A DNA stretch of 64,000 bases, taken from positions 30,703 to 94,702 of IMG/VR virus record IMGVR_UViG_3300022468_000539; one strand, 5' to 3'. The notes under the pieces are model-generated. The model was not told the DNA's origin. It saw only the letters and a list, made by a program, of their open reading frames with translations, and made no database searches. This stretch comes from a virus. Its lineage: Duplodnaviria; Heunggongvirae; Uroviricota; Caudoviricetes. A program made the position numbers and the translations under genes. This document shows, piece after piece, positions 6,559 to 23,848 of the stretch; the stretch's first letter is position 1, and every line of letters starts with the position of its first letter.

Positions 6559-6598
6559 CGTGTTATAATTCAGTCTTCGAAACACAAAAGGAAATCCT
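6559..6598 (+). promoter_or_regulatory. early promoter-leader cassette (CGTGTTATAAT + TCAGTCTTCGAAACACAAAAGGAAAT)
   Basis: Member of the repeated cassette family described under findings. Confidence 0.5.
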
Positions 6599-6754
6599 GT
6601 GAATACTGTGAAAAATGTAATAGTAAATGGGTTTGAGATTGGAAGAGTTGAGGGCAGTCGTTTTTACGGTTGTATTAAAATTGGTGAAAAACGCGGATTT
6701 CTGTTTAATACAAAAAAAGCTGCAGTAAGTTTTGCAAAAAATCAAAAACTGTGA
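6599..6754 (+). CDS. small hypothetical protein (GTG start, 51 aa)
   Basis: Directly follows the cassette; RBS AAAGGAAAT. Confidence 0.25.
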   Translation: MNTVKNVIVNGFEIGRVEGSRFYGCIKIGEKRGFLFNTKKAAVSFAKNQKL

Positions 6755-6946
6755 TATAATTCAGTTATCCTACATACATCGAATGGTTCGGACAAGATAG
6801 CAAGAGTTATCTGCGTAGGATTCTCAACAAAAAAGCCGTGACAGTTGAGAACTTGTTGAGGAACTAAAAATAGTTCCCACATGTAAGCAAAATAGTGATA
6901 TAATGCTTACATGTGACAGCAAACTGACGAGTTTATTGTTGCTATA

Positions 6947-7180
6947 GGAAGTAATTAATCCTAGACCTAGTATAGTGTAGTTGGTAAGCACGTGCCCATT
7001 CGTAGGTTCGAATCCTACCACTTCTGTAATGGAAGTGTAGCCAAGAGGTCTAAGGCGGGTTCGAATCCCCTACATAAGGTCATATATAAATTTGCTTGTA
7101 GACGAAATTAGGTAAAGTCGCCGTGAAAACCGGCAAAAAATATCGAAAGATATTTGGTGGTTCGAATCCACTCCGGCAAA
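6947..7180 (+). ncRNA. three consecutive non-canonical tRNA-like modules (T-arm GGTTCGAATCC plus acceptor-like stems, no canonical anticodon arm)
   Basis: T-loops at 7007-7013, 7060-7066 and 7161-7167. Hairpins CACTTCT-GTAAT-GGAAGTG and AAATATC-GAAA-GATATTT. No ORF. Confidence 0.35.
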
Positions 7181-7213
7181 TTTGTGTTATAATTGATTGA
7201 AGACTAATATGAT

Positions 7214-7430
7214 GAGTGTATACCTTAATAAAACAGAGGCGAAGGAAAGAATCGCCAATGTGGTCTAAAGGGAACACTTCCAACATGGTATCGGAGAATA
7301 GGGCAGTAGTGACATAAGAGTGGTATCTTATGAATCGAAGTCGGGATAAGTACCAATCCCGCTAAACAGGAATCCGAACGATACCGGAGAAGATGTTTGA
7401 TTTTAGGTTCGAATCCTAATGTACTCACCA
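7214..7430 (+). ncRNA. 217-nt structured RNA with a tRNA-like acceptor stem (GAGTGTA/TGTACTC), T-arm and encoded ACCA; may be an intron-containing tRNA
   Basis: Perfect T-arm TTAGG-TTCGAAT-CCTAA. 3' end TGTACTC-A-CCA. Internal hairpins GGCGA..TCGCC, GGGAT..ATCCC, GGTATCG..CGATACC. Confidence 0.35.
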
Positions 7431-7460
7431 TATTAGTTTTAATGTTAATTTGGAGTTATT

Positions 7461-7706
7461 ATGAAAAAGTTTTTGGTTATCGCTGCAGTTGCACTTTTGA
7501 GCGCATGTACAAATACATCCAACGCAGAGCGTGTGTTGGCTGATAATGGATATACCGATATCCAAATGACTGGTTATAGTCTATTTGGTTGTGATAAAAA
7601 CGACACTTTTTCAGATGGCTTTAAAGCAAAAAGCCCAAATGGAAAAATGGTGGAAGGTGTTGTTTGCTCTGGAGTTTTTAAAGGTGCCACCATCCGGTTT
7701 AATTGA
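7461..7706 (+). CDS. small secreted lipoprotein (81 aa)
   Basis: Signal peptide with lipobox LLSAC; Cys-rich mature part; RBS GGAG. Confidence 0.5.
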   Translation: MKKFLVIAAVALLSACTNTSNAERVLADNGYTDIQMTGYSLFGCDKNDTFSDGFKAKSPNGKMVEGVVCSGVFKGATIRFN

Positions 7707-7715
7707 TATAAATAC

Positions 7716-7789
7716 TTACTCGTAGCTCAGTGTAGAGCGCCCTACTTTTAATGGGGAGGTCGGTGGGTCGTTCCCATCCGAGTAAACCA
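7716..7789 (+). tRNA. tRNA-Lys (TTT)
   Basis: Acceptor TTACTCG/CGAGTAA; D-arm GCTC..GAGC; anticodon loop CTTTTAA; ACCA encoded. Confidence 0.75.
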
Positions 7790-7904
7790 AGTTTGTAACC
7801 CTAAACGTCTAAGTAACCGAGACATGACGTTGAATTGCAAGAGAACTGCTGGCAAAGTCGATAAATTCCTTCTCAGGATGTGCAGTTAGCAAAGGGTTCA
7901 TTTA

Positions 7905-8029
7905 TTTTGTTGTGAAGGGGAATTGGTATACCCTACTGGTTGGATAATAGTGGGAAAGCGGTGTTTATCACCTTAAAGTAGCCCTCCTGTAAGCCGGTGC
8001 TTGTTTAGGTTCGAATCCTATCAACAAAA
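7905..8029 (+). ncRNA. 125-nt tRNA-like structured RNA (acceptor TTTTGTT/AACAAAA, T-arm TTCGAAT, extra hairpins)
   Basis: Acceptor complementarity and T-loop at 8010-8016; internal hairpins GGTG-TTTAT-CACC and AAGC-CGGT-GCTT. Confidence 0.3.
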
Positions 8030-8114
8030 AAAGAGCAAGTCGGGTAGCGCCCGAACAACTCAGATCAAGAGTTACATTGTTGATCCTGCGGGTGCAAGAA
8101 GTCCCGACCAAATT

Positions 8115-8204
8115 GGGGTGTTGGCCGAGTGGTCTAAGGCAGCGGTCTTGAAAACCGTCACTGGCGCAAGCTGGTCGTGGGTTCGAATCCTACACGCCCC
8201 GCCA
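8115..8204 (+). tRNA. tRNA-Ser (TGA)
   Basis: Type II: GGGGTGT acceptor, GCC-GAGTGGTCTAA-GGC D-arm, anticodon loop CTTGAAA, long variable arm, CCA encoded. Confidence 0.8.
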
Positions 8205-8325
8205 CTATATTATTAGGAAACAGTATGGCATTGCTAGAGTTTTGTTTTGCAATCTATCTAATTTTCAATGATCATCCAGTCATTGGAATAATTTTGTTGC
8301 TTGATTCTGTTTCACGTACATCTTA

Positions 8326-8359
8326 GTGCTATAATCATTGAAATACAAAAGAGGTAGCT
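8326..8359 (+). promoter_or_regulatory. early promoter-leader cassette (GTGCTATAAT + CATTGAAATACAAAAGAGGTAGCT)
   Basis: Cassette family. Confidence 0.5.
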
Positions 8360-8974
8360 ATGCCAACATTCCGCGAAAAAATGATTGATGCAGTTCAGAC
8401 ACAGGAGGGATTTGATGTAAATCCTGACGATTTCTTTTTTGAAACTGGTATTGGTGGAACTGACATCGATTATGAAAAGTTTGATGCGCGGTTTAAGAAA
8501 TATCCAGTTTATACATGGGTGTGTACCGACACTTCTGTTGGCATCTATGCCATTACACTCGATGGTGTACTCGTCGCATACACAACACAAAATGCCCGTA
8601 AAAACCCTGTAAACGTTTACTACTTTTCAAAGCTCATACAAGATTTGGTTGTTAAGGCGGTTTGCGAATGTGAACTTAACTGTGAATCTGAAAAGAATTA
8701 TAGTCTGGTTGATGAATCAATTCTTGATTCTGACTATGACAAGATCAACGCTTTTGAAAATCGCATGTTGGTAACTGAGTTCCCTGCATTGGTTTCCATG
8801 GGTCTGACTATTGAACAAAATGAAAACAAATTTATTGTGTTGAAAGACAGTGTTCGGATAAACGATTTCTCTCATGAAAGTATGGATACTGTTGAACAAT
8901 GCGCCAAGCATCATGTTAGTTATTCGTCTGATCCAGAATCTTTCATCAAACTATTTCTGTTGCCTGAAATGTAA
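8360..8974 (+). CDS. hypothetical protein
   Basis: 204-aa ORF following the cassette. Confidence 0.45.
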   Translation: MPTFREKMIDAVQTQEGFDVNPDDFFFETGIGGTDIDYEKFDARFKKYPVYTWVCTDTSVGIYAITLDGVLVAYTTQNARKNPVNVYYFSKLIQDLVVKAVCECELNCESEKNYSLVDESILDSDYDKINAFENRMLVTEFPALVSMGLTIEQNENKFIVLKDSVRINDFSHESMDTVEQCAKHHVSYSSDPESFIKLFLLPEM

Positions 8975-8979
8975 TTACT

Positions 8980-9056
8980 GCGACCATAGCTCAATTGGAT
9001 AGAGTTACTGTCTTCTACACAGTCTGTTGGGGGTTCGAATCCCTCTGGTCGCACCA
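8980..9056 (+). tRNA. tRNA-Arg (TCT)
   Basis: Acceptor GCGACCA/TGGTCGC; anticodon loop CTTCTAC; T-arm GGGGG-TTCGAAT-CCCTC; CCA encoded. Confidence 0.8.
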
Positions 9057-9068
9057 ATCAAAAATATT

Positions 9069-9398
9069 ATGACAAAACATCTGTATAGATTTGTTGATTC
9101 TGATTATGGAATTGATCCCATTATTGAGAAATTTCCAATCATCAAAGAAACCCCTTGCGCGTATTGGATTGACCGTTCATACAATGAGCCAAAACTTGTC
9201 TATAAAAATTCCACTCGTGGTTTTGCCAAGCAAACAATCGAAGAAGCTATGGAGAGCTATTATCGAAGAAAATTGCGACAACTATCTATTTTGAATAGTC
9301 ATGTTTCTCGTGTGGAGAGTATTCTTGAAGAAATCAAGACAAAAGAGCAGCGTGGCGATATTGTCAATAAATCATTAGAAAGAGTCAAAGAATGGTAA
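9069..9398 (+). CDS. hypothetical protein
   Basis: The ORF-track start at 9027 overlaps tRNA-Arg, so the internal ATG at 9069 was used. Confidence 0.4.
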   Translation: MTKHLYRFVDSDYGIDPIIEKFPIIKETPCAYWIDRSYNEPKLVYKNSTRGFAKQTIEEAMESYYRRKLRQLSILNSHVSRVESILEEIKTKEQRGDIVNKSLERVKEW

Positions 9399-9679
9399 GA
9401 ATTCTTCATAGTTCATTTGCGGGTTCATACTATCAAGAGTGTACAATTGTTGATCATGTCAAGTTTGACCCTGTAAAACACGGAAGTGACTTGAATAAGG
9501 TTATGATTGCCTTCGGTTATAGTAAAGCAGAAGATCACCCACACTTCGATAAAGATGGTGTCATTGTTTCATATTATGATGATGTTTTGGGTGAGTCTGT
9601 AGAACAATGGGTGGAGTTCAGTCGAATAGAAACCATGCGTGATGGGAGTGGTTTAGCTCGGTTTAACAAGGTGGATTGA
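9392..9679 (+). CDS. hypothetical protein
   Basis: 95-aa ORF. Confidence 0.4.
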   Translation: MVRILHSSFAGSYYQECTIVDHVKFDPVKHGSDLNKVMIAFGYSKAEDHPHFDKDGVIVSYYDDVLGESVEQWVEFSRIETMRDGSGLARFNKVD

Positions 9680-10023
9680 AAATGAGTAATCTGAAACTGT
9701 ATATCGCGGTTCTAGACGAGTTTCCAGACTATATGACACCTACCCTAGTGGCACATGCTGTTCTCGCTGCAGATCGCGAATTTGTAGGAACCAAACTGTA
9801 TGAACAATGGTTTGCTGATTCATTTAAGAAAGTTGTTGTTCGGGTCAACCAAAAAGAGTTTGACAAGATTAGTCAACTATTTGGTGTGCATCTGGCGCAC
9901 GAAAACAAGACACTTGGCGGTAAGAAAGCATGTGCTGTTGTATGCCCTCGCGAAGATGTGCCCAATGTATTGAAATTTGCTAAGACTTGGAAACCACTTC
10001 CGGCATCTAGTGAGGTCAGCTAA
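9676..10023 (+). CDS. hypothetical protein
   Basis: 115-aa ORF. Confidence 0.4.
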   Translation: MKMSNLKLYIAVLDEFPDYMTPTLVAHAVLAADREFVGTKLYEQWFADSFKKVVVRVNQKEFDKISQLFGVHLAHENKTLGGKKACAVVCPREDVPNVLKFAKTWKPLPASSEVS

Positions 10024-10109
10024 AGGTTAAGCTGTTGCCCTCGATATCAGAAAAAGGCGTCACTGATTGGCAACAAATTTTTGGTTCGATTCCAAAATCT
10101 CATACAAAC

Positions 10110-10149
10110 CGTGTTATAATTCAGTCATCGAAATTCAAAAGGTGGTCTT
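10110..10149 (+). promoter_or_regulatory. early promoter-leader cassette (CGTGTTATAAT TCAGTCATCGAAATTCAAAAGGTGGTCTT)
   Basis: Near-identical to the copy at 10725. Confidence 0.55.
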
Positions 10150-10368
10150 ATGAAAAATACAAAATACTTTTGGAAAGAAGTTCCACTCAAAGCTGATATT
10201 GAGCGGCACCGTAAACAAGAAAAAGAAATTCAAGATAAGATTGACTTGCTTGAGTCGATTGTTGAACCAACAGAAATGCAATTGAGAACACTTGCTACAT
10301 ATCGAAATTTTATGTATCAACTGCAACTGTCTAAAGCAGAAGTTGTTTCTAAGATTGGTAAGAAATGA
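10150..10368 (+). CDS. hypothetical protein
   Basis: 72-aa ORF. Confidence 0.4.
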   Translation: MKNTKYFWKEVPLKADIERHRKQEKEIQDKIDLLESIVEPTEMQLRTLATYRNFMYQLQLSKAEVVSKIGKK

Positions 10369-10721
10369 CACCACTGAATAAATCTTTTATTGGTGCCGCG
10401 AACACCAAACGTGCAAGTCTAAACGCTATCTTGATTCGCTCAAAAATTGACAAAATTGTCTATCCATCGTTCCATTTAGTGGAACGTATGGTTGAGCGAA
10501 ATATTGATGTTGTCGATGTTGCACGGATGACTGTGCCAATTGTCAAATACTTTCGAGAAACCACATTCAACGACAGAAGCTGTTTAGTTCTGTGGCGCGA
10601 CCTGAAGCTGGCGGCTGACATTCGGATTGGAACCGTTACTGGTAAACGTTCGATTATTTTGAAAACCATTGTTGATGATGTTTCTCGAAAAACTTTTGAT
10701 GAAACGTTCAAAATCGAATAA
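10365..10721 (+). CDS. hypothetical protein
   Basis: 118-aa ORF. Confidence 0.4.
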   Translation: MTPLNKSFIGAANTKRASLNAILIRSKIDKIVYPSFHLVERMVERNIDVVDVARMTVPIVKYFRETTFNDRSCLVLWRDLKLAADIRIGTVTGKRSIILKTIVDDVSRKTFDETFKIE

Positions 10722-10724
10722 AAC

Positions 10725-10765
10725 CGTGTTATAATTCAGTCATCGAAATTCAAAAGGTAAACAAA
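10725..10765 (+). promoter_or_regulatory. early promoter-leader cassette
   Basis: CGTGTTATAATTCAGTCATCGAAATTCAAAAGGTAAACAAA-ATG. Confidence 0.55.
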
Positions 10766-11002
10766 ATGACTACATTCATCACTTCTTACAGCCAGTTGAA
10801 CAATGGTGATCGTATTTCTTATGAATCTAATTGTGGTACACTAACTGCCACTGTGAGTCACATTCGAATCGGTAAGAATGGTCTTGGTAAGATGGTTCCA
10901 TTTTTGGGCCTGAATGTTGATGCAAAGAATGGTCGCAAGGCACATCGGCTTGAATTGCTTGGTGGTAATTCTTTGCCTATGTACAGAATTCAGAAACTGT
11001 GA
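10766..11002 (+). CDS. hypothetical protein
   Basis: 78-aa ORF. Confidence 0.4.
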   Translation: MTTFITSYSQLNNGDRISYESNCGTLTATVSHIRIGKNGLGKMVPFLGLNVDAKNGRKAHRLELLGGNSLPMYRIQKL

Positions 11003-11017
11003 TAGAATAAAGAAAAC

Positions 11018-11092
11018 GCACCAAGTCATCTAGAGGCAAGGATACGTACCCGTCTTGTGGTCGCAACGTAGGTTCGAATCCTACCTTGGTGC
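11018..11092 (+). tRNA. tRNA-like gene with an 8-bp His-type acceptor stem (GCACCAAG/CTTGGTGC), good D- and T-arms, non-canonical anticodon arm (possible pseudogene)
   Basis: T-arm GTAGG-TTCGAAT-CCTAC. The anticodon region CGTACCCGTCTTGTGGT does not fold canonically. No CCA. Confidence 0.35.
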
Positions 11093-11125
11093 ATTTAACA
11101 AATTGATAATGAAAAGGAAAATATT

Positions 11126-11773
11126 ATGAGCGAAAAACAATTGATCAGTGTGACACGTGCTTTGGCTTTGTTGAAGCAAACCGACGAGCGTATTCAGCGC
11201 GCAATGAGCGACAAGTTCATTGATGTGTCTGTTGGTAAGGGTAAGAACCGCCGTGTTCAGCGTGGCGGTAGCGATACAGTTGATGTGGTCGAAAAGAACA
11301 TTCAGTCTGCTATCGACTCCGTGCGTGATTTGCTGTCTCGCCGTGCAGCTATCAAGGCAGCTATCGTTGCTTCGAACGCAAAGACTGGCCTGACTGTTGC
11401 CGGTGAATATGTGACTGTGGCAGAAGCTATCGAAATGAAGCGTTCTGTTGAGTTCAAGCGTCAACTGGTTAACGCCATGAAGACACAGTATCTTCAGGCT
11501 AACAATACAGTTGCTACTCTGAATGTGAAGGTGGAAGCAAGTATTGATGCTATCATCAATACCATGATGGCTTCTGATAAATCTACAAAGGTCGATCCTT
11601 CGGTTTTGGCTGCGATTGGTGAACCCCAACGCAATCAAAGTGAAGCAGCTTTGATTGATCCTGCAAATCTGTCTACCTTCATCAAGAAGTTGGAAGACGA
11701 GATTTCCGAGATTGACACCGAACTGGATTTCTTGTTGAGTGAAATCAACGCGAAGACACATATTCTGGTATAA
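11126..11773 (+). CDS. hypothetical coiled-coil protein (215 aa)
   Basis: Good RBS AAAAGGAAAA; Ala/Lys/Glu-rich heptad-like sequence. The 260-aa antisense ORF 11081..11863 is taken as spurious. Confidence 0.5.
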   Translation: MSEKQLISVTRALALLKQTDERIQRAMSDKFIDVSVGKGKNRRVQRGGSDTVDVVEKNIQSAIDSVRDLLSRRAAIKAAIVASNAKTGLTVAGEYVTVAEAIEMKRSVEFKRQLVNAMKTQYLQANNTVATLNVKVEASIDAIINTMMASDKSTKVDPSVLAAIGEPQRNQSEAALIDPANLSTFIKKLEDEISEIDTELDFLLSEINAKTHILV

Positions 11774-12044
11774 ATAACATTTCAACGTCCTAGGTGAACA
11801 GTCTAAGATGACCTTTCGAGCAGAGAGAATCAAAACATCTGCAACTTTGCTTAAAAAGTACAAATTAAATCTGGAACTTCAAAATTCAAAGATCAAAGTT
11901 TATGCTTCAAAGTTTAAGTTTTAAGTTTTAGAATATCATGTTTTAAAATTGAAAGTTAAAAGGTCTTCAAATCCTGATCAACGGTTTTATGGTGCTGGAG
12001 TCGCACCTAGATTGTACCGCAGGCTGCTTAGTGGGGTTGAAATT

Positions 12045-12129
12045 GGGAGAGTGGCGGAATAGGTAGACGCGCCGGTTTAAGAAGCCGGTACCGTAAGGTG
12101 TGCAGGTTCGATTCCTGTCTCTCCCACCA
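12045..12129 (+). tRNA. tRNA-Leu, type II (anticodon loop TTAAGAA; AAG or TAA reading ambiguous)
   Basis: GGGAGAG acceptor; GCG-GAATAGGTAGA-CGC D-arm as in E. coli tRNA-Leu; long variable arm; CCA encoded. Confidence 0.65.
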
Positions 12130-12136
12130 AATTTAT

Positions 12137-12207
12137 GCGGGTAAGCTAGAGGTTAGTCGCCAGCCTTCCAAGCTGTGCAGAGTGGAGTTCGATTCTCCCT
12201 ACCCGCT
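12137..12207 (+). tRNA. tRNA-Gly (TCC)
   Basis: Acceptor GCGGGTA/TACCCGC; anticodon loop CTTCCAA; T-loop TTCGATT; no encoded CCA. Confidence 0.6.
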
Positions 12208-12251
12208 CATGATTATAATAATCAGACATCGAAAATACAAAAGAGGTAATT

Positions 12252-12383
12252 ATGGCAAACCATGGATTCAAATTATGTGGTAATTTTCCATACAAATTTA
12301 TGGCATATTCACCATCCGACCCTTCCAAAATGGGATTGGGTTTCACTGATATGTTATCTGCTCAGAGACACTGTAACAAATGA
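12252..12383 (+). CDS. small hypothetical protein (43 aa)
   Basis: Follows the cassette at 12215 (TGATTATAAT..CATCGAAAATACAAAAGAGGTAATT). Confidence 0.2.
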   Translation: MANHGFKLCGNFPYKFMAYSPSDPSKMGLGFTDMLSAQRHCNK

Positions 12384-12594
12384 ACAGTCTTATTGAAACT
12401 GAGCCGGAAATATTTGATGTGCAGCATTGGGGTACTGATAAACCAGAAAAGTGGATTGCAGAACAATTACCGTGAATAAGAGTTCGCATAGCACGATATG
12501 GTGATTATGCGAAAAGTTCCTCAAAAATTCATGTAGAACTGGCAAAATCTATGTTATAATTCATTCATCAAAAACACAAACGAGGTAACGAATT

Positions 12595-12966
12595 ATGGCC
12601 TACATGTCTCAACAACAAAAAGCTGCTATGTCTCCCGCTATCAAGGCTGTGCTGAAGAAGTACAATATGAAGGGTACTATTGCAGTTCAACATAAGTCTA
12701 CTCTTGTTGTGAATATCAAATCCGGTAAACTAGATGTGATGGGTGAAACAACAGGTTGCCAAGGTCGCAAATATATTAGCATCAACCCTTACTACCTGAA
12801 AAATAATCATCAAGGTGACACATACTTCTTTTTGAAAGAGTTGATTGCTGTTATGAATGATGGTAACTACGACAACAGTGATGTCCAGACAGACTATTTT
12901 GACACTGGTTGGTATGTTTCTGTTAACATCGGCTCTTGGGACAAACCTTACACTGTGGTGGCTTGA
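12595..12966 (+). CDS. hypothetical protein
   Basis: Follows the cassette at 12550; 123 aa. Confidence 0.45.
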   Translation: MAYMSQQQKAAMSPAIKAVLKKYNMKGTIAVQHKSTLVVNIKSGKLDVMGETTGCQGRKYISINPYYLKNNHQGDTYFFLKELIAVMNDGNYDNSDVQTDYFDTGWYVSVNIGSWDKPYTVVA

Positions 12967-12968
12967 TC

Positions 12969-13139
12969 ATGGCAAATCAGTACAAATCCAAAACAGAAGC
13001 TGAACTGAGGTTCATCATCAAAGATGCTGGTGAAGCAGCTAAGTGTATGCGGGATATCAATCCTGCTGCAGAAGCAAAATATCTTGATCAGGTGAATGAC
13101 GCCTGTAGTGAACTTTATCGTAGAAAGAACAAGAAATGA
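12969..13139 (+). CDS. hypothetical protein
   Basis: ATG 2 nt after the previous stop; the ORF-track start at 12936 overlaps upstream. Confidence 0.3.
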   Translation: MANQYKSKTEAELRFIIKDAGEAAKCMRDINPAAEAKYLDQVNDACSELYRRKNKK

Positions 13140-13459
13140 TTAGTGCAAAAGAAGCCAAAGAACTATACGACAACTCTGGTGCTGAAGTTGAGGATTTTCT
13201 GGCAAAAACTGTCGAGCCTGCGGTTATTAAAGCAGCCAGGGGTGGTAAGCGACAAGCCACTATTCATATTGGTTGTCAACGTGCCAGTATGCCTTATGAA
13301 ATAAAGTCACTGGATAGTAATGTTCTCGCTAAATTGCGAAATCTTGGATATACTGCTGGAATTCAATGGATTGATGAAGAATATGTACCAAGAGGTCTGC
13401 AAGATGATAACGGTAAAGGTACACTCCATCGTAACTATGGCTATCTCATTAAGTGGTAA
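13136..13459 (+). CDS. hypothetical protein
   Basis: 107-aa ORF. Confidence 0.4.
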   Translation: MISAKEAKELYDNSGAEVEDFLAKTVEPAVIKAARGGKRQATIHIGCQRASMPYEIKSLDSNVLAKLRNLGYTAGIQWIDEEYVPRGLQDDNGKGTLHRNYGYLIKW

Positions 13460-13932: not shown

Positions 13933-14720
13933 AATTTGTAATTCAACACAACCTTATCAATAAGCAATCACTCGAAAAGATTAGGAAGGCCACAGAGCAT
14001 CTTCCTGTTGTTTGGGTAGGTGCTATACCATTCTCTGAAGAAATCGCTTCTAACGATGAACTGGAGGGTCTGGAGTACATTCCTTATGGCTCGAACCTTC
14101 TGGCGCGTGTAGCAGCTAAAAGAGGCTGGAAAGGTCTACATCATGATCTTACAAAGCTGAACTATCGCAACTTTGTTGAACATCGTGCCGATATGCTGAA
14201 TTGTAATGTCATGTCTGCGGAGAGAGTTGTTGACTTTTTGGAAGTTGTCAATGGAATTCCATGGCCCAAAGAATATTTCATTCGGCCTAGTCTAGATGAC
14301 AAGCAATTCTCCGGTACAGTCATGGAACCGAAAGAAATCATTGAGTGGTTTAAATCGATGATGGAGAGTGGGCCGGGCAGCTACTACATGTCTCCAGAGA
14401 CAGATATTGTTATTGCTCTACCAAAGAAAATTCAAGCCGAGTGGCGATGGTTCATTGTTGGTGGTAAGATTATTTCTGGCTCCATGTATCGTGCCCATGA
14501 TCAGATGCAGTTGAAACAAGAAACCGACATCGAAGTCATTAAAGAAGCGCAAGCACTTGCAGACGTTTGGTTGCCATGCGATTGTGTCGTGATGGATACA
14601 GCCTTAGTTGATGACAAGGTTTATGTGTTGGAGTTTAACAACATTAACTCCAGTGGTTTTTATGAACACGATATTGGCGCGGTTTTTAACGCACTGTACG
14701 GATATCATACTAAACTGTGA
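13929..14720 (+). CDS. ATP-grasp domain protein (phage DUF4343-like)
   Basis: C-terminal RWFIVGGKIISGSMYR...VLEFNNINSSGF resembles the ATP-grasp fold. Confidence 0.45.
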   Translation: MKFVIQHNLINKQSLEKIRKATEHLPVVWVGAIPFSEEIASNDELEGLEYIPYGSNLLARVAAKRGWKGLHHDLTKLNYRNFVEHRADMLNCNVMSAERVVDFLEVVNGIPWPKEYFIRPSLDDKQFSGTVMEPKEIIEWFKSMMESGPGSYYMSPETDIVIALPKKIQAEWRWFIVGGKIISGSMYRAHDQMQLKQETDIEVIKEAQALADVWLPCDCVVMDTALVDDKVYVLEFNNINSSGFYEHDIGAVFNALYGYHTKL

Positions 14721-14773
14721 TACAATAATAGTTCGAAATCGAAAGGACAACATGACATTTGAAGTGACACCAT

Positions 14774-14941
14774 ATGGATAACTCAAAAAAAGTACCCATG
14801 AAACCAGAATTCGAAAAATTCTGGAAAGAAGCCCATAAATCGGGAGGCATTATTCATACTTTTGAGTTGAATAAGTTTGCTGAATTGGTTTGGGAAGCTG
14901 GATTTAAAGCTGGTGCAAAAGAAAAAAATAATAATGGCTAA
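14774..14941 (+). CDS. small hypothetical protein (55 aa)
   Basis: Downstream of the cassette-like promoter at 14716 (TGTGATACAAT). Confidence 0.25.
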   Translation: MDNSKKVPMKPEFEKFWKEAHKSGGIIHTFELNKFAELVWEAGFKAGAKEKNNNG

Positions 14942-15387: not shown

Positions 15388-15578
15388 TATGACATTGCGT
15401 AAATTACGGAAACTTCGAAGCAATCGTGCTGGATGGAACCACTTTTTTATGCAGTCATGTCAATTTTTAAGCGTCTTCGGTGTGGATGATAAACAAAAAT
15501 ATCCCATTTTGACAGTCGGGTGGCGAGAATTGAAAGACTTGTGATATAATACAGCTATCGAAAACAAAAGGTAAAATT

Positions 15579-15728
15579 ATGGCAAATTTAAAAATTGTTA
15601 AGACTTATGTAACAAACAGCAAAGGCACTATGAAAGTTGCTTGGAACGTGGTTGAAAATGATGGTTTTGTTGTGGAAACATTCAGTCTGAAGCGCGATGC
15701 AGCAAAGTGGCTGAAAAATACAAAGTGA
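15579..15728 (+). CDS. small hypothetical protein (49 aa)
   Basis: Follows the cassette at 15539 (TTGTGATATAAT ACAGCTATCGAAAACAAAAGGTAAAATT). Confidence 0.3.
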   Translation: MANLKIVKTYVTNSKGTMKVAWNVVENDGFVVETFSLKRDAAKWLKNTK

Positions 15729-15736
15729 GTCAAACA

Positions 15737-15904
15737 TGAAATACGATGGAACATTTGAAGATTTTGTCAATGAAGCACTCCGCGCTGCGTTTGATGGTTT
15801 GATCACCGGTGGAACAAAGGGTATGAAAACTGTCATCTACCAGTATATCAATATCGCTGTCCAACTTGGTCGTGACGGTTCTCAGTTCAAGACTCGGGAT
15901 TGAG
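15737..15904 (+). CDS. small hypothetical protein (55 aa)
   Basis: ATG 8 nt after the previous stop. Confidence 0.3.
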
Positions 15905-16085: not shown

Positions 16086-16117
16086 TATTTGTATGAAATC
16101 CGTGCTATAATAGCACA

Positions 16118-16600
16118 ACAGCAATTAATGATCGAGTTGATTGCTGATAAGTTCTTTAGAAATTACTGTTGGAGGTAGGCTTAGAAGTAGCCATTCTGAT
16201 ACAAGAAAGGTATTACCGAATTAAGTTAGGGTAAGGTTTCTCAAGGTCAGACGCAAGTTAGATGATTCTCATATGAGGATTCTCGTAGTCAACAAGGTAA
16301 GGAAAACTGACTGACTTGTGCCTTTAAAGAGTCGAACAATAGCATGATTGTGACATCTACAATTCTTAGAAGGGCATCAATAAGAATTGGAATTCAAAAG
16401 TGTTTCTGGTGAATATGGGGAAGATCGGAAACATCAGCAAATCAACTTTCGCGGGTTGATGAAGCAATGGGGTAGCGCCCCTGAGAATTGTTGCACATGG
16501 GCCACTTGGTTAAGTACAGAGGCACCCCAGAAATGGTAAGGCTGAAGTTTCGTTTGGTGTAGAAACGCACAACAGTAATTTCTAAAGAATTTCAAAAACT
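16118..16600 (+). ncRNA. candidate large structured non-coding RNA (~480 nt, ORF-free) between two extended -10 promoters
   Basis: Promoter CGTGCTATAAT at 16103-16111. No ORF longer than 22 aa on either strand. 20-bp terminal inverted repeat 16152-16171/16570-16589. Direct repeat GCACAACAGnAATT at both ends. Internal hairpins such as GGGGTAGCGCCCC. Confidence 0.4.
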
Positions 16601-16616
16601 GTGTTATAATAGCTAT

Positions 16617-16859
16617 ATGAAAATTTTTGAAGTACCAAAAAACGAAGCAGAAATCAAGCGTGGCTTGATTCTTATTGGAATTGAAGGTTCAGAGTTTGAA
16701 GTGGAATCGGTTACAAAACTGATTTCAAAATCATATCCTAGTACAAATTGTTCTGATGTGGGTGATAAAGAAGGTTATGTAATTGAATATTTTTGCATAA
16801 ACCGTTCTGATAAGTCTCATTTTGTTAATCTTTACAAAACAGCAAAATCTGGTTTATAA
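16617..16859 (+). CDS. hypothetical protein (likely leaderless mRNA)
   Basis: ATG only 5 nt after the -10 TATAAT of CTGTGTTATAAT (16602-16612). Confidence 0.4.
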   Translation: MKIFEVPKNEAEIKRGLILIGIEGSEFEVESVTKLISKSYPSTNCSDVGDKEGYVIEYFCINRSDKSHFVNLYKTAKSGL

Positions 16860-17360: not shown

Positions 17361-17388
17361 TTGACACTCTATAAAAGTGTGATAGAAT
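17361..17388 (+). promoter_or_regulatory. full sigma70-type promoter: TTGACA, 16-nt spacer, TGtGATAGAAT
   Basis: Consensus -35 plus extended -10, about 20 nt upstream of the tRNA at 17409. Confidence 0.55.
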
Positions 17389-19014: not shown

Positions 19015-19285
19015 AAGTTGTGGTATAATTGCTTTATCAAAGGATAAATAATTATGTCAGCCTTATCACCTGATAGAAAATAGACACCGAATTATGTGGT
19101 TAGCGTAGTTCTATAGATGTCTGGGGTAAGAATCCTAAGTTAACCACGAATTAATCGATCTGATCAGTCGAAAAGTAAGTAGTAGGGTGTCATGTTACAG
19201 CGGCGCTCTTTGCAGTGATATACTGCGTCAGTCTGAGGAAGATTGAGAAACACTGTGGTAAAAACCCAAACGTAGCTGTAACCTA

Positions 19286-19362: not shown

Positions 19363-19374
19363 AAGTTTTATTTG

Positions 19375-19453: not shown

Positions 19454-19464
19454 AATAAAATTTA

Positions 19465-19544: not shown

Positions 19545-19563
19545 TATTTGAAAGAAAAATATT

Positions 19564-19740
19564 ATGAGTGCAAAACTGATTGGTGAAGATATTCCAAAGA
19601 GCATTGGTAAATACAATATCGCATCTGAGCGAATTCGTACTATGATTCCATTTTTTGCGACCTTTGATGGTGAAAAATGGGTTGATATTCCATCTTTTTT
19701 CCTAAATGAAGGTGGTAAACTCTATTTCTTTGAAGATTGA
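19564..19740 (+). CDS. small hypothetical protein (58 aa)
   Basis: ATG with RBS GAAAGAAAAA; sits between tRNAs. Confidence 0.3.
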   Translation: MSAKLIGEDIPKSIGKYNIASERIRTMIPFFATFDGEKWVDIPSFFLNEGGKLYFFED

Positions 19741-19749
19741 TATATCGGG

Positions 19750-19825
19750 GGGGGTGTAGCTCAGTTGGGAGAGCGGTTGCTTTGCAAGCAATAGGTCGCA
19801 GGTTCGATTCCTGTCACTTCCACCA
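19750..19825 (+). tRNA. tRNA-Ala (TGC)
   Basis: G-run acceptor GGGGGTG/CACTTCC; anticodon loop TTTGCAA; T-loop TTCGATT; CCA encoded. Confidence 0.75.
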
Positions 19826-19958
19826 TATTTGAAGGCCAAATTCTCCTGGTGAGTATTAAAAGGCGTTGCGGCACTCGGAAGAGGCGTTAAACATCGAAGC
19901 GCAAACTAATAGGGTTGTGTCCCTGCCTGCCTTCAAATTATTATTATGAAAGTGAACT

Positions 19959-20102
19959 ATGAAACTTGTTGATATCTTCTTGGTGGATGGTATTCGAGTC
20001 TACGGCTATACACTTGAAGGTCACTCTGGTATTTGGCGTTCCATGACTTACTACCCTGAAACATGGCACATCCCAATGATCAAAGATATCTGGTTCGACT
20101 GA
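19959..20102 (+). CDS. small ORF (47 aa), translationally coupled (TGAcATG) to the AlkB-like fragments
   Basis: Stop-start arrangement; possible N-terminal remnant of the dioxygenase. Confidence 0.25.
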   Translation: MKLVDIFLVDGIRVYGYTLEGHSGIWRSMTYYPETWHIPMIKDIWFD

Positions 20103-20103
20103 C

Positions 20104-20298
20104 ATGACACATCTTCCAATCCAATACATTCCATGTGCCATAGATTACCCTACACAGGCTTTCAAACGGCTTTGGAATGAACTGCAGTGGGATCGTCGTG
20201 GTTCAACTCCACGTAGAGAATACTACTGCAACGATGTCAACGTGTCCCTTACACCTATGGCTCTGGCTCTGGTATCAGAACATATGAACCAAGGCTAA
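20104..20298 (+). CDS. AlkB-like 2OG-Fe(II) dioxygenase, N-terminal fragment
   Basis: LPIQYIP...LWNELQW...PRREYYCNDVNVS matches the N-terminal half of the AlkB (2OG-FeII_Oxy_2) fold; ends TAATG into the next frame. Confidence 0.4.
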   Translation: MTHLPIQYIPCAIDYPTQAFKRLWNELQWDRRGSTPRREYYCNDVNVSLTPMALALVSEHMNQG

Positions 20299-20654
20299 TG
20301 CATCCTGTCATAGCTCAGATCAAATCTGATTGTGAGTTAATCATGAACACAAAATTTGAAGTAGTGTTTTTGAATGGATACGAGAATTCACGTGATCATC
20401 TTGGATGGCATGCTGATGACTCCCCAGAAATGGATGATACCAGACCCATTTGCATTGTTTCTCTTGGTGCAGAGCGTGAGATTTGGTTCAGGCCACAGAA
20501 CGACAAAGACGAAGTGACTAAACTTGTGTTGCAGCATGGAAGCCTTTGTGTGATGGAAGCTGGTATGCAGGATACACACTATCACCGAATTCCCAAAGCC
20601 AGCTTTGAATGTGGGCCTAGAATCAGCATTACACTGCGCGGATACACTGAATAA
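20298..20654 (+). CDS. AlkB-like 2OG-Fe(II) dioxygenase, catalytic C-terminal fragment
   Basis: HxD (GWHADDS), distal H (HYHRIP) and RxS (RISITLR) motifs all present. Confidence 0.55.
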   Translation: MHPVIAQIKSDCELIMNTKFEVVFLNGYENSRDHLGWHADDSPEMDDTRPICIVSLGAEREIWFRPQNDKDEVTKLVLQHGSLCVMEAGMQDTHYHRIPKASFECGPRISITLRGYTE

Positions 20655-20656
20655 TA

Positions 20657-20946
20657 TGCCAGAGCAATACAATACATTTCCAAAATTCCCTGCTATGTCA
20701 CGTGCTTTAGCTGATGTACGTCTTATGTTTGGGCTTACCGACTATCCTATTAGATTTACCAAAGAAGAGCTTGAAATCGCTTCTAGGTTTGATGCTGCTT
20801 TAGAATTACGTAAAGTAATGGAACGTAGAAAAGCTATGAGGGAAGAGCAACAGCTTAATGAATTTGATGTGTCTGAATTCATAGAACAGCAAAAACAACT
20901 ATCTGAATACAATAAAAATAATCCAGATAATCCCGCAAAGTTCTAA
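20657..20946 (+). CDS. hypothetical protein
   Basis: ATG 2 nt after the AlkB stop. The ORF-track start at 20605 overlaps upstream. Confidence 0.35.
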
Positions 20947-20950
20947 ATCT

Positions 20951-20992
20951 TGTGGTATAATTCATTTATCTAAATTCAAAAGGAAATTCAAA
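20951..20992 (+). promoter_or_regulatory. early promoter-leader cassette (TGTGGTATAAT TCATTTATCTAAATTCAAAAGGAAATTCAAA)
   Basis: Cassette family. Confidence 0.5.
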
Positions 20993-21412
20993 ATGAACAC
21001 CACATACGCTATTGCATATGTTTCGAATGGAAATACCTATCATAATTGGAGTGGTCAAATTCAAGACTCTTTTGTGACCAAAACCTACGGATCGCAGCGT
21101 TTTGAGAGTGAAAGCGAAGCAGAGTTTTATATGGAAAAACTCTTCCGCGATTACCATGCAATTAAAAAAACAGAGCAAGAATTGTTTAGTGTTGATAAGA
21201 AACACTCAAATTTTCTTCGCTCTGAGAAAAAGGTTTCGCCTTACTGTGATGAAGTGATCCGCCTTCATGATGAAGTTGAAACGAAAAAACAAGATTTTCA
21301 ACTGGAATATGGAATTCGATTCCAAGATTTGGATTTTCATACGTCAGAAAATCACTTTCAAATCCATAAGCAGTATAACTATGACCCAGACGCATACAAG
21401 GGGTATCCATGA
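20993..21412 (+). CDS. hypothetical protein
   Basis: 139-aa ORF. Confidence 0.4.
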   Translation: MNTTYAIAYVSNGNTYHNWSGQIQDSFVTKTYGSQRFESESEAEFYMEKLFRDYHAIKKTEQELFSVDKKHSNFLRSEKKVSPYCDEVIRLHDEVETKKQDFQLEYGIRFQDLDFHTSENHFQIHKQYNYDPDAYKGYP

Positions 21413-21705
21413 TCACCATTGCTGAAGATAACCACATCCCCTTACTGCATAAGTTATCGATAACCGAAACTAAAAACGCCTTGAAATGGGGTTCTTTAGT
21501 TGATATCGAAGAATTCAAGCGGCAAGTTAATTCAGGGTTAGTCTCATATGACGAATCTGCGTTATGGGCATGCGAACACGAAACCAGAATCTACACTGGT
21601 GAAATGGTTGAATGGGAACTCAGCGAGAACGACAAAGACGAAGAAATTGTTTTACTTTTGAATAAACCCGAGTGGGCCACTATGGTTTACTGGTACGGCA
21701 AGTAA
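21409..21705 (+). CDS. hypothetical protein
   Basis: 98-aa ORF. Confidence 0.4.
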   Translation: MITIAEDNHIPLLHKLSITETKNALKWGSLVDIEEFKRQVNSGLVSYDESALWACEHETRIYTGEMVEWELSENDKDEEIVLLLNKPEWATMVYWYGK

Positions 21706-21723
21706 TGTGCTATAATTCCATTC

Positions 21724-22776
21724 ATGAAAACATCTATCTCTCAACTCAAAACATATTTGGTCGGCGGCGCAGTTCGCGATATCTACATGGGAGAAATCCC
21801 AAAGGATCGTGACTACGTTGTGCTTGGTTCCTCTCCAGAAGAAATGCTTTCTCTGGGCTTCGAACAAGTCGGTGCTGACTTCCCTGTGTTTCTACATCCA
21901 GAGACAAAGGAAGAGTATGCTTTGGCTCGTCGTGAGCGCAAGGTTGGTTCTGGTTACCTTGGTTTTGAGTGTGAGTTTGGTGCTGATGTTACACTTGAAG
22001 AAGACCTGAACCGTCGCGATTTCACTTGCAACTCCATGGCAATGGATTTGGAAACAAACGAAATCTTTGACCCGTTTGATGGTCGCCACGACATCGACAG
22101 AGACACTCTCCGTATTACCTCTCCTGCCTTCAAAGAAGACCCTCTGCGCGTCTTGCGCATGGCACGTTTTGCTGCGCGTTATGATTGGCATATTTCGTCT
22201 GAGTCTGTTGGTATTGCACGAGAAGTTGTACTCTCCGGTGCATTGAATGAACTGCCTGCAGAGCGTTTCTGGAAAGAGATTGAAAAGTCTTTTGATGACG
22301 AATCATTGCGTGATTTTTTTGTTAACTTGGATTACCTTCTGGTTATGAATTTTTCCGAGTTTTTTAAGAATGCACTACCAAAGTGGGCTGTTTATAAATC
22401 ACATTTTGATGATCTTGAAAATGTGGAGTGGCTTTCTGCTCTGCTGTCGAATGAAAATACAACAATCTGGCTATCTGCACGTGCCAAACGCATTGCTAAG
22501 GCTTTGATGCTGGTTACACCGAGGAATGCAGAAACAATGTATAGTTACCTACTTGGATGTGATGCATTCCGCATGAGCAGTATCTTGCGCGATGTTGTAA
22601 GTATCAAAAAAACAGTATATTTTAATACATCAACACAAATCACCATTGGTGCATGTAACCTGTGCAAGACAGTCACTGCAACCGACTTCCCAAATCTGGA
22701 AGGAAAAGCGCTTGGTGATGCTATCAAAGACAAACGCATGCAATTGATCGCATGTCTCTATAACGATTTATTTTAA
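21724..22776 (+). CDS. tRNA nucleotidyltransferase (CCA-adding enzyme), class II
   Basis: N-terminal head YLVGGAVRDIYMG...DRDYVV (GGxVRD..DxD), ERRF..NSMA, and an HD-less short body. Promoter TGTGCTATAAT is 7 nt before the ATG. Confidence 0.65.
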   Translation: MKTSISQLKTYLVGGAVRDIYMGEIPKDRDYVVLGSSPEEMLSLGFEQVGADFPVFLHPETKEEYALARRERKVGSGYLGFECEFGADVTLEEDLNRRDFTCNSMAMDLETNEIFDPFDGRHDIDRDTLRITSPAFKEDPLRVLRMARFAARYDWHISSESVGIAREVVLSGALNELPAERFWKEIEKSFDDESLRDFFVNLDYLLVMNFSEFFKNALPKWAVYKSHFDDLENVEWLSALLSNENTTIWLSARAKRIAKALMLVTPRNAETMYSYLLGCDAFRMSSILRDVVSIKKTVYFNTSTQITIGACNLCKTVTATDFPNLEGKALGDAIKDKRMQLIACLYNDLF

Positions 22777-22779
22777 GGA

Positions 22780-22974
22780 ATGAAAATGTTAAAAGATCGT
22801 AAAGTATTGGTTGAAAATGAAATTGAAAAACTCAAACGTGAATGTGGGCAGGAATATCTATCTATGATCCGTGGAGTGAATATTATTGGATATGATGACA
22901 AGCGTGAAAAGCTAACTTCACTTATGGTTGACCTTTCTTTGATTGAAAAGATGATTTCTGATGGACAAGAATGA
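22780..22974 (+). CDS. hypothetical protein
   Basis: 64-aa ORF. Confidence 0.35.
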   Translation: MKMLKDRKVLVENEIEKLKRECGQEYLSMIRGVNIIGYDDKREKLTSLMVDLSLIEKMISDGQE

Positions 22975-23111
22975 CAAAGAAACACGTGAGTGGCTAACTT
23001 CGTGTTATAATCAGGCCAATGACATTACAGTGAAGAATCCTCCGCTATCTACGGATCGAATCTTTGCTGCAATGTTGTATATGTACGAGCTTGGAAAGAA
23101 AGAAACTCAAA

Positions 23112-23336
23112 ATGGAATTCACCGATCTACTTGACGATTATTTGGCGCAAAAAGAAGTGATCGATAAACTGCGTATAGAATACAGTCAAAATCTATATGC
23201 ATACAGTACAACTTTCAAATCTTTTGATGATTACTATTTCGAGCCTGTAGAAAAATATCAACAGGCTCGAAATCGTTTGAACGAATTTATGAACCGCAAG
23301 TCTCTCAGTGAAATACGCTTCGGCGGGAGTTTATAA
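23112..23336 (+). CDS. hypothetical protein
   Basis: In-frame ATG; the ORF-track TTG start at 23064 is less likely. Confidence 0.35.
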   Translation: MEFTDLLDDYLAQKEVIDKLRIEYSQNLYAYSTTFKSFDDYYFEPVEKYQQARNRLNEFMNRKSLSEIRFGGSL

Positions 23337-23782
23337 TGTACAGCACCACACCACTACCAGACCCGAATCAGGGTCATGTCGGTTTTTATTTCGCAATTGT
23401 AGGTTTGCTACTTCTGGGTATCATTTCTTATATGGTATCACTCCAACATCACTCTACATATGAAGACAAATATGAACCATGGAGTCTTAAAAATTCTCCT
23501 GTGTTTACAACATTTTTTGTGATTTACATCATTTTGTTTTTCGCGGCATTTTATGGTTCATTCATTGATACCAAACCTGTCCCAAAGAACGAAGTCGTTA
23601 TAGCAGAACTGGTTGATTTGGACACTAAGATGGTGCAGAAAAACTTTGGTAGCACTAAGCATCCTGAATGGCGTTCGGTTCAGCAAGGTTTCCTTGTTTA
23701 CAAAACTCCTGATGGCTATTTGACACTACCAAACAGTCATTTACAGATCGTACATCAACGGATTATTTTATACAAGAATTGA
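23336..23782 (+). CDS. hypothetical membrane protein
   Basis: Two TM segments. Confidence 0.4.
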   Translation: MYSTTPLPDPNQGHVGFYFAIVGLLLLGIISYMVSLQHHSTYEDKYEPWSLKNSPVFTTFFVIYIILFFAAFYGSFIDTKPVPKNEVVIAELVDLDTKMVQKNFGSTKHPEWRSVQQGFLVYKTPDGYLTLPNSHLQIVHQRIILYKN

Positions 23783-23848
23783 AAATAAAAGTTGAATATC
23801 TTTATTTCGTGGTATAATTCAGTTATCGAAACACAAAAGGAAAATGAA

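Follow-up and report, generated by a model that had tools for sequence, protein, structure and literature searches.

A repeated promoter-plus-leader cassette in an uncultured, divergent T4-like phage

Promoter early stem-loop elements (PeSLs) are repeated composite elements of T4-type phages in which an AT-rich region, sigma-70-like -35 and -10 boxes, and a stem-loop are followed by a Shine-Dalgarno (SD) sequence and ATG at the end (PMC2839356, PMC4122927). They concentrate in hyperplastic regions ahead of ORFans and at indels between close relatives, and they are known as mobile regulatory cassettes in RB49/phi1, T4/PST, and KVP40/nt-1 (PMC2839356, PMC4122927), with crossovers mapped between the -10 box and the SD/ATG (PMC2839356). 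The formation of circular excision products (mini-circles) is a further trait of PeSLs. Here, we describe a repeated promoter-plus-leader cassette in 64,000 nucleotides of viral DNA (IMG/VR record IMGVR_UViG_3300022468_000539, positions 30,703 to 94,702; hereafter “the window”). We think it probable that these repeats are self-contained expression cassettes of early genes, analogous to PeSLs, that double as portable junctions for gene shuffling.

Occurrence and anatomy of the repeated cassette

The promoter part of the cassette, TGNTATAAT (TGnTATAAT), matches 26 times in the window compared to 3.15 +/- 1.95 matches in dinucleotide shuffles. All 26 sites lie on the coding strand of their own region and 24 of them are intergenic; the 22 plus-strand sites all fall within 5.4-25.3 kb (plus-strand gene territory) and the 4 minus-strand sites within 47-62 kb (minus-strand gene territory). 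With up to 3 mismatches allowed, the complete cassette, TATAAT-N6-ATCGAAA-NN-CAAAAGG, was found 10 times with 0.01 expected, and a position weight matrix of the 16-nt leader alone gave 10 matches above 15 bits, each directly after a TATAAT at the same spacing; leader matches below 15 bits are at chance level. An earlier description of this DNA from its letters alone (the sequence-only reading) had pointed to this repeat and had named beforehand a lack of enrichment over shuffled sequence as its possible refutation. The motif is present where it had been placed and lies far above chance both for the promoter (26 vs 3.15) and for the cassette (10 vs 0.01).

Our census of the window comprises 11 canonical copies, 3 degenerate copies, and 2 partial relics. 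Named by the first base of TGn, the canonical copies are 6561, 10112, 10727, 12552, 15542, 20953, and 23810 on the plus strand and 47411, 55411, 58135, and 61754 on the minus strand, the degenerate ones are 8327, 12211-12215, and 14718, and the relics are 6752 and 19021. The region of tRNAs and small open reading frames (ORFs) at 6.5-24 kb holds 10 of the 14 copies, while the replication/structural block (25.3-47.3 kb) is free of them. Every one of the 14 ends in AAGG or GAGG, followed after 5-10 nt by the ATG or GTG of an ORF, and 10 of the 14 proteins led by a cassette have no PHROG match. Relatives for comparison were found by pattern scans and BLAST: “phage B” is one 85.9-kb IMG/VR contig (pieces L002, L009, L015, and L251) with around 78-80% nucleotide identity in genes, L013 is a sister fragment of phage B, L047 is a more distant metagenome contig (around 65-70% nucleotide identity), and L221 is a contig with the consensus cassette and no genes in common with the window. 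The individual copies are the following:

6551..6601, plus strand: canonical, gaataaagcg-TGTTATAAT-TCAGTC-TTCGAAACACAAAAGG-aaatcct-GTG, 24.0 bits; leads ORF 6599-6754 (51 aa, ORFan)
8317..8362, plus strand: degenerate, TGCTATAAT-c-ATTGAAATACAAAAGAGG-tagct-ATG, 5-nt discriminator deletion, 16.5 bits; leads ORF 8360-8974 (204 aa, phrog_4518)
10102..10152, plus strand: canonical, 27.3 bits; leads ORF 10150-10368 (72 aa, ORFan)
10717..10768, plus strand: canonical, 27.3 bits; leads ORF 10766-11002 (78 aa, ORFan); orthologs in phage B and L047
12201..12254, plus strand: degenerate, TATAAT-aatcagac-ATCGAAAATACAAAAGAGG-taatt-ATG, no TG, 8-nt discriminator; leads ORFs 12252-12383 and 12380-12475
12542..12597, plus strand: leader 1 nt longer (ATCAAAAACACAAACGAGG); leads ORF 12595-12966 (123 aa, phrog_10415); phage B ortholog nearly identical
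14708..14754, plus strand: relic, TGATACAAT-aatag-TTCGAAATCGAAAGG-acaac-ATG, with TACAAT; followed by a 9-codon ORF
15532..15581, plus strand: leader 1 nt shorter, ATCGAAA-ACAAAAGG; leads ORF 15579-15728 (49 aa)
20943..20995, plus strand: canonical, ATCTAAATTCAAAAGG, 24.1 bits; leads ORF 20993-21412 (139 aa, ORFan)
23800..23851, plus strand: canonical, 26.6 bits; leads ORF 23849-24043 (64 aa, ORFan)
47370..47421, minus strand: canonical, 27.3 bits, directly 3' of the large-terminase gene (47418-49052); leads ORF 47205-47372 (55 aa, ORFan)
55367..55437, minus strand: canonical, 23.0 bits; leads ORF 54944-55369 (141 aa)
58094..58145, minus strand: GTG-TATAAT-CCATAC-ATCTAAATTCAAACGAGG-ttcaaa-ATG, 15.1 bits; leads ORF 57881-58096 (71 aa, ORFan); absent from L013
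61715..61764, minus strand: canonical, ATCGAAACTCGAAAGG, 25.8 bits; leads ORF 60782-61717 (RNA ligase)

The extended -10 box, the A-rich SD, and the position ahead of protein-coding genes that the sequence-only reading had described all hold. Its copies at 8326, 12215, and 14716 are indeed cassettes but degenerate ones (discriminator deletion, no TG, and TACAAT, respectively). On the minus strand, its copies at 47373, 55370, and 61718 stand, whereas its “variant at 56341” does not: the site behind it, TGCTACAAT at 56354, is an intragenic promoter with a TCATTG discriminator and no leader inside ORF 56263-56439. Copy 58135, with promoter form GTG-TATAAT, had been missing from that list.

Information content was computed from 27 copies, taken from the window and from its relatives and aligned on the -10 box. 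Conservation forms one contiguous block, AAAAcTGTGnTATAAT-TCAkTC-ATCGAAA-yy-CAAAAGG, with 1.5-2.3 bits at conserved columns and 0.2-0.4 bit at some of their neighbours. From -45 to -11 relative to TATAAT, every column stays below 0.35 bit, which bears out the earlier remark that no -35 is obvious; with no information anywhere in the -35/-30 region, the cassette has neither a -35 nor a MotA box. A MotA-type middle promoter (TGCTT-type box near -30) was thus rejected. Across the window, neither classical -35/-10 pairs (68 vs 55.7 +/- 7.5; 46 vs 47.3 +/- 6.8) nor intrinsic terminators are enriched over shuffles. Anchoring the alignment on the AUG instead yields at most 1.1 bit per column and blurs the block, which is therefore registered to the promoter.

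Three modules can be distinguished within this block. The promoter part (A-tract plus TGTGnTATAAT; AAAAcTGTGnTATAAT) is common to tRNA, small-RNA, and leaderless units, and CAAAAGGwAA has the same flavor as the (T/A)AAGGAAA SD found genome-wide at genes without a cassette. Only the 13-nt core TCAkTC|ATCGAAA across the predicted transcription start (+1) is cassette-specific, and it is missing wherever this promoter serves tRNA, small-RNA, or leaderless units. The A of ATCGAAA, 7th nt after the -10 box, is the likely +1, which fits with tRNA 5' ends 9-10 nt and leaderless ATGs 6-7 nt after theirs; about 6 conserved nt (TCAkTC) would then not be transcribed. The predicted 5' untranslated region (UTR) is 21-28 nt long (median 24) and 50% A.

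We propose that the A-tract and TGTGnTATAAT would form a -35-independent promoter, followed by the 6-nt discriminator TCAkTC, a start at the A of ATCGAAA, and a short (21-28 nt), A-rich, and G/U-poor 5'UTR whose 3' half would be an ordinary SD with the start codon 5-10 nt after it. Immediately upon infection, transcription from these promoters by the host RNA polymerase would give each small gene, mostly an ORFan, its own strong and translation-ready transcript. Such “early” timing appears reasonable given that the promoter looks like one for host sigma-70, has no MotA box, and lies in a hyperplastic region of tRNAs and ORFans. For the 13-nt core, we prefer the reading that it would tune start-site choice and promoter escape and provide a clean, unstructured 5' end with no dedicated regulator. 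Between relatives, genes would be inserted, deleted, and replaced with breakpoints at or inside the promoter or cassette, for which the roughly 40-50 bp common to the copies would make them portable junctions.

Gene exchange at the cassettes and conservation among relatives

The gene order of the window was compared with that of phage B, L013, and L047, with nucleotide alignments at the junctions. At 5 loci, a single promoter or cassette in one phage corresponds to two that flank one or more extra ORFs in the other. First, cassette 6561, its ORF 6599-6754, and promoter 6752 are replaced in phage B, which lacks this cassette and ORF, by one single promoter on which the two BLAST segments overlap exactly. 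Second, cassette 12215 and 2 ORFs (around 400 nt) precede cassette 12552 in the window, whereas in phage B a tRNA-Leu is directly followed by the ortholog of 12552. Third, relic 14718 and cassette 15542 form the left and right borders of a block of around 1 kb with three ORFs that is absent from phage B; there, one cassette with the same short-leader variant as 15542 lies directly before the ortholog of 15736-15903, and L047 has other genes again. Fourth, two L013 cassettes flanking a 65-aa ORF correspond to the single cassette 55411, with homology switching inside the cassette such that the upstream homology leads to one L013 copy and the downstream homology to the other. Fifth, a phage B cassette, an 85-aa ORF, and a leaderless promoter correspond to the single leaderless promoter 21708.

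Further replacements start right after orthologous cassettes 8327 (promoter kept in phage B, downstream gene replaced), 20953 (unrelated genes follow in phage B), and 10112 (upstream flank around 98% identical, identity falling within the cassette). Cassette 47411 is kept in its L013 ortholog while the gene that it leads is only 40% identical. By a manual count across one relative pair plus fragments, a cassette or relic borders around 12 of 17 differential blocks. The cassettes thus appear to mark junctions of gene insertion and replacement between related phages, a point absent from the sequence-only reading, and the single-versus-double topologies are those of PeSL-type modular shuffling.

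Two relic cassettes are each followed by a 9-codon ORF (14752-14781 and 19046-19075, plus strand; MTFEVTPYG and MSALSPDRK before the stop); located at indel borders relative to phage B, these ORFs look like the remains of deleted cassette genes. Upstream of cassette 10112, the segment 10060-10100 (plus strand) holds a tRNA T-arm-like remnant, TTTTGGTTCGATTCCAAAA, that is around 98% conserved in phage B (L009/L251) and in which neither ARAGORN nor Rfam calls a tRNA. Between the orthologs of the gp32-like single-stranded DNA-binding protein (SSB) and a pyrophosphohydrolase, L013 (reverse complement, 5808-6653) carries an opposite-strand 281-aa ORF, possibly a mobile endonuclease of phage B/L013, that is absent from the window (50090-50232).

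The same cassette consensus recurs in phage B, L013, L047, and L221. At positional orthologs, identity reaches 100% for TATAAT and 96% for ATCGAAA but 59% for the discriminator and 30-40% for the flanks, and cassettes are as similar within genomes (0.57/0.54) as between them (0.56; permutation p = 0.86). The motif therefore behaves as if held by selection and not as a product of recent copying or homogenization. Concerted evolution within the genome was rejected for want of any signal (p = 0.86), and a “best paralog beats ortholog” comparison was left unused since it is biased, taking the maximum over 10 copies. The searches behind this set of relatives differed in yield: seeding with the peptide of the CCA-enzyme homolog recovered no relatives, seeding with an alignment recovered phage B only, and a metagenome pattern scan gave, among the matches listed, mostly single chance matches with only L047 related.

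These data bear directly on a rival to a functional cassette, namely that the leader is conserved only because recent copies were spread or homogenized by recombination and that the sequence from the -10 box to the SD has no function. Cassettes do sit at indel borders; copies 10112 and 10727 match each other perfectly across 35 nt, unlike their orthologs in phage B; the subtype at +8/+9 (CA or TT) is exchanged between positional orthologs; and PeSL crossovers likewise fall between the -10 box and the SD/ATG (PMC2839356). However, recent copying does not account for conservation that is position-specific, with columns of 0.2-0.4 bit beside columns of 1.5-2.3 bits, nor for a consensus that is the same down to around 65% nucleotide identity (L047) and in L221, and no excess of similarity within genomes was detected (p = 0.86). 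We therefore regard this explanation as unlikely.

A further array was seen in L195 (IMGVR_UViG_3300012979_000032; 46% GC), an unrelated phage with no protein homology to the window. It carries around 24 near-identical promoters within 13.6 kb (700-13300), each built of AAAAAGGGG-TTGACA-AACCCC (GGGG-TTGACA-CCCC stems), TGnTATAAT, and then AAAGGAAtTGATACtATG (AAAGGAA SDs). Predicted transcripts start with ATC(G/A)A at around 11 of the 24 promoters, and the leader often contains a GC hairpin. The L195 promoters look like a textbook PeSL-like array, and the lineage of the window is therefore not alone in having arrays of this general kind.

The wider promoter family and gene content of the window

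Besides the cassettes, 16 further perfect promoter sites have AAAA.TGTGnTATAAT in common, with A(T) as the 7th/8th nt after the -10 box, but carry no such discriminator or leader. They include the following:

5478, 6752, 6896, 7185, 16103, 17205, 17380, 17789, 18720, 19021, and 23003, plus strand: RNA units, ahead of tRNAs or non-coding RNA
16602, 21708, and 25234, plus strand: apparently leaderless units
6448, plus strand: intragenic promoter inside ORF 6215-6556

The proposal that tRNA units reuse the -10 part alone applies to 5478 (tRNA 5496-5613), 17205 (tRNA-Tyr 17224), 17380 (tRNA-Pro 17409), and 17789 (tRNA-Trp 17824); from 18720 and 19021, the next tRNA is more than 200 nt away. The full TTGACA -35 reported at 17361-17388 is present. 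At promoters 5478 and 17205, 9-10 nt separate the -10 box from the tRNA 5' end. The tRNA at 5496-5613 (plus strand), which starts 9 nt after the -10 box of 5478, was called by Rfam (41.6 bits) and missed by ARAGORN, and its size of 118 nt suggests an intron or long insertion.

In the apparently leaderless units at 16602-16619, 21708-21726, and 25234-25252 (plus strand) and at 60142-60157 (minus strand), an extended -10 box is followed by an ATG 6-7 nt on. They encode proteins of 80 aa, a 350-aa PolyA_pol/CCA-adding enzyme, a protein of 92 aa, and a 189-aa phosphoesterase, respectively. The leaderless arrangement ahead of the CCA-enzyme gene is kept in phage B (TGGTATAAT-taaaat-T-ATG, L251 18702). 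A leader-bearing ortholog of promoter 21708 in phage B was considered and rejected, the phage B cassette at this place being an inserted module.

Other members of the promoter family are associated with potential RNA structures. Promoter 6896 lies in the loop of a 10-bp inverted repeat at 6880-6916 (plus strand; ACATGTAAGC...TGATATAAT...GCTTACATGT) that shows a compensatory C:G to A:T change in phage B (L251 2745-2785; ACATGTAAGA...TCTTACATGT) and resembles the PeSL subclass whose stem-loop overlaps the -10 box. It is one of three promoters (6752, 6896, and 7185) in a stretch of around 700 nt without ORFs (6745-7460, plus strand) that is 85-95% conserved in phage B, where its counterpart contains an extra tRNA-sized insertion. 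Hairpins and tRNA-like modules with the T-arm sequence GGTTCGAATCC make up this stretch; Rfam gave only sub-threshold matches to tRNA, YrlA, and tRNA-Sec, and it possibly encodes divergent tRNAs or tRNA-like small RNAs. At 16103-16150 (plus strand), the promoter is palindromic (TGCTATAATAGCA) and precedes a conserved hairpin (CAGCAATTAATGATCGAGTTGATTGCTG), with no ORF over around 500 nt; this possible small-RNA unit is kept in phage B (L251 11192). Phage B also has two identical promoter-plus-structured-RNA units (TGTTATAAT-gtggct-AGAGGTACTGGAAACGGCTAATTTCGTGAGTACC) 3.3 kb apart (L251 12068-12110 and 15343-15385), for which we saw no equivalent in the window.

Megablast against deposited phage genomes found nothing near-identical to the window. 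Its proteins are those of a divergent T4-like phage, with a T4-type gene set of gp43-, gp44/62-, RegA-, gp41-like (DnaB-like helicase), gp17-like, and gp32-like proteins and the gene order 44-62-regA-43 that is also found in T4/RB69:

26560-27492 and 27941-28345: clamp loader genes gp44 and gp62
28389-28784, plus strand: regA homolog, translation repressor (phrog_242, E = 3.4e-46)
30860-33391: family B DNA polymerase, best identity to any isolate 41%
47418-49052: T4-type large terminase
49116-50090: gp32-like SSB
60782-61717: RNA ligase (phrog_562, 311 aa)

GC content is around 40%, and the hyperplastic region at 5.4-25.3 kb contains 17 tRNA genes and many small ORFs. The T4 late-promoter consensus, TATAAATA, matches only twice in the whole window (7707 and 11769), neither time ahead of a structural gene; late promoters of this phage must differ from the T4 consensus or sit elsewhere.

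Alternative readings and known systems

Several observations weigh against our proposal of autonomous early-gene cassettes. We infer promoter activity, timing, and +1 from the sequence and by analogy to T4-type phages. Promoter function as such does not require the core, since the tRNA and leaderless units presumably work without it, and the near-invariance of ATCGAAA (96% at orthologs) exceeds what a generic unstructured, A-rich leader needs. Predicted openness of the UTR and ribosome-binding site is only slightly above controls (0.63 vs 0.58, p = 0.03), a marginal effect that speaks against a strongly unstructured leader. As to the likeness with PeSLs, hairpins in the upstream 50 nt are not significantly more stable than in controls (z -0.60 vs -0.44, p = 0.15), the region from -40 to +25 spanning the cassette is not enriched in structure (mean z -0.36), and terminator-like sites in the window are not enriched, with one clear terminator only (55416-55437). 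This hairpin, AAAAGGCCCTTCGGGGCCTTTT, precedes cassette 55411 and is the only canonical terminator adjoining any cassette. At gene level, cassettes and differential genes are not significantly associated (12/25 vs 34/96, Fisher p = 0.26), and the block-level figure given above is a manual count from one relative pair plus fragments; the link to shuffling therefore rests on breakpoint anatomy and not on statistics.

That the 13-nt core is instead the site of a dedicated trans-acting factor seems improbable to us. On DNA over the +1, a phage or host protein would switch protein-coding early units off (or on) and spare tRNA and small-RNA units; on the 5'-terminal AUCGAAA of the mRNA, a factor would act on stability, 5'-end modification, or translation. 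In favor of this reading, the core is the sole cassette-specific part, it is absent from tRNA, small-RNA, and leaderless units, it is near-invariant at orthologs despite diverging flanks, and it is kept equally within and between genomes. Its variable positions (4th discriminator base; +8/+9) lie beside invariant ones as in a protein-binding motif, but the motif has no dyad symmetry and no candidate factor was found. Also in its favor, shut-off of T4 early promoters has been described as not fully understood (PMC3014915). However, A-T-C starts also occur in other phage and host promoters, including around 11 of 24 in the unrelated L195, which suggests a preference at the level of the polymerase and not a specific factor. 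As a lead, the transcripts of strong phage promoters such as T7 A1 and lambda PL also start with AUC. Nothing in our evidence separates factor binding from initiation tuning, and the core is a compact candidate determinant of initiation or early shut-off. If a factor does bind it, the cassettes would constitute a sequence-defined system of early-gene shut-off or marking in a T4-like phage, from which tRNA, small-RNA, and leaderless units would escape.

Very improbable is the suggestion of the sequence-only reading that the leader is a shared RNA operator through which RegA would jointly shut off the leader-bearing early genes. Its premise that RegA is encoded at 28389 is correct, and on a UTR this short (median 24 nt), a bound factor would compete with the 30S subunit. 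RegA sites of T4 and RB69, on genes such as 44, rIIB, and dexA, overlap the AUG or sit just 5' of it, are A+U-rich, and have no fixed upstream element (PMC3014915). The leader resembles them in being A-rich, unstructured RNA where translation of early genes is initiated, but its position is wrong: the conserved block lies 10-24 nt upstream of the AUG, is registered to the -10 box, and ends at the SD, with positions -7 to -1 carrying no more than 0.6 bit and six conserved nt falling upstream of the predicted +1 and hence outside the RNA. A few SD-AUG spacers are similar to T4 operators (e.g., AAAAUUAUG at 15570-15581, which equals T4 rIIB), but RegA-like A/U spacers are not enriched (1/13 cassette genes vs 4/99 others, p = 0.47), and no leader match is found near the canonical RegA targets that the window contains, namely genes 44 (26560), 62 (27941), and regA itself (28389). 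None of the tests that we ran linked regA to the cassette. Single cassette genes could be RegA targets through A/U-rich SD-AUG spacers like any other gene, but the conserved leader is not explained by this. The alternative suggestion of a translational enhancer is partly plausible with regard to the A-rich UTR, but CAAAAGGwAA is merely the genome-wide ribosome-binding site and openness is barely raised.

T4 RegB endoribonuclease cuts at GG-AG followed by RAYARAA in early SDs. Though early-type mRNAs with an SD and then an A-rich stretch are found here as well, the SD is AAGG(A/T) or GAGGT, and a RegB target was rejected with GGAG or GGAU in only 1 of 27 cassette leaders.

Our preferred reading, the self-contained and exchangeable early cassette, can be set against three kinds of described elements; a literature search on TGnTATAAT phage early cassettes gave no direct precedent. 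Extended -10 (“TGn” or “TRTGn -16 region”) promoters of sigma-70/sigma-A are a general class with the start expected 7 nt downstream. The cassette is like them in its TGTGnTATAAT with a perfect -10 box, in the A-tract of its spacer, and in carrying no information at the -35, but this class is not a repeated cassette and leaves the conserved discriminator and leader unaccounted for. A moron is a gene with its own promoter and terminator and thus, like the cassette with its gene, an autonomous single-gene expression unit added to a phage genome. Unlike the cassettes, which are co-oriented with their neighbors and have a conserved junction sequence in common, lambdoid morons have no conserved flanks and are usually antisense to their neighbors (PMC2839356).

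The closest match are the PeSLs. Like them, the cassette is a repeated composite intergenic motif with a host-type early promoter in a T4-like genome, its 3' end consists of the SD and start codon of the gene that follows, it is found in hyperplastic regions ahead of ORFans, and it shows one-versus-two-cassette topologies around ORFs that differ between relatives, with breakpoints between the -10 box and the SD. Yet published PeSLs have -35/-10 pairs, whereas the cassette has a -35-less, extended -10 promoter (TRTGn type); it has no consistent stem-loop or terminator (1/11 copies), its conserved tract spans around 40-50 bp mostly 3' of the -10 box compared to around 100 bp, it has 13 near-invariant nt spanning the predicted +1, and the same promoter core also stands ahead of tRNA, small-RNA, and leaderless units within the same indel topologies. 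Lacking the stem-loop and the -35, the cassette is therefore a variant that would work like a PeSL and not a strict member of this group. For annotation of this phage group, the motif would provide a ready map of early transcription units, likely starts, and gene boundaries. Beyond this, it would extend the PeSL idea to a deeply divergent, uncultured T4-like lineage (DNA polymerase around 41% identical to the nearest isolate) in which the cassette is built differently, with a short, rigid leader and neither -35 nor stem-loop, and this difference suggests that shared promoter and leader homology, rather than a stem-loop, may be what matters for modular exchange.

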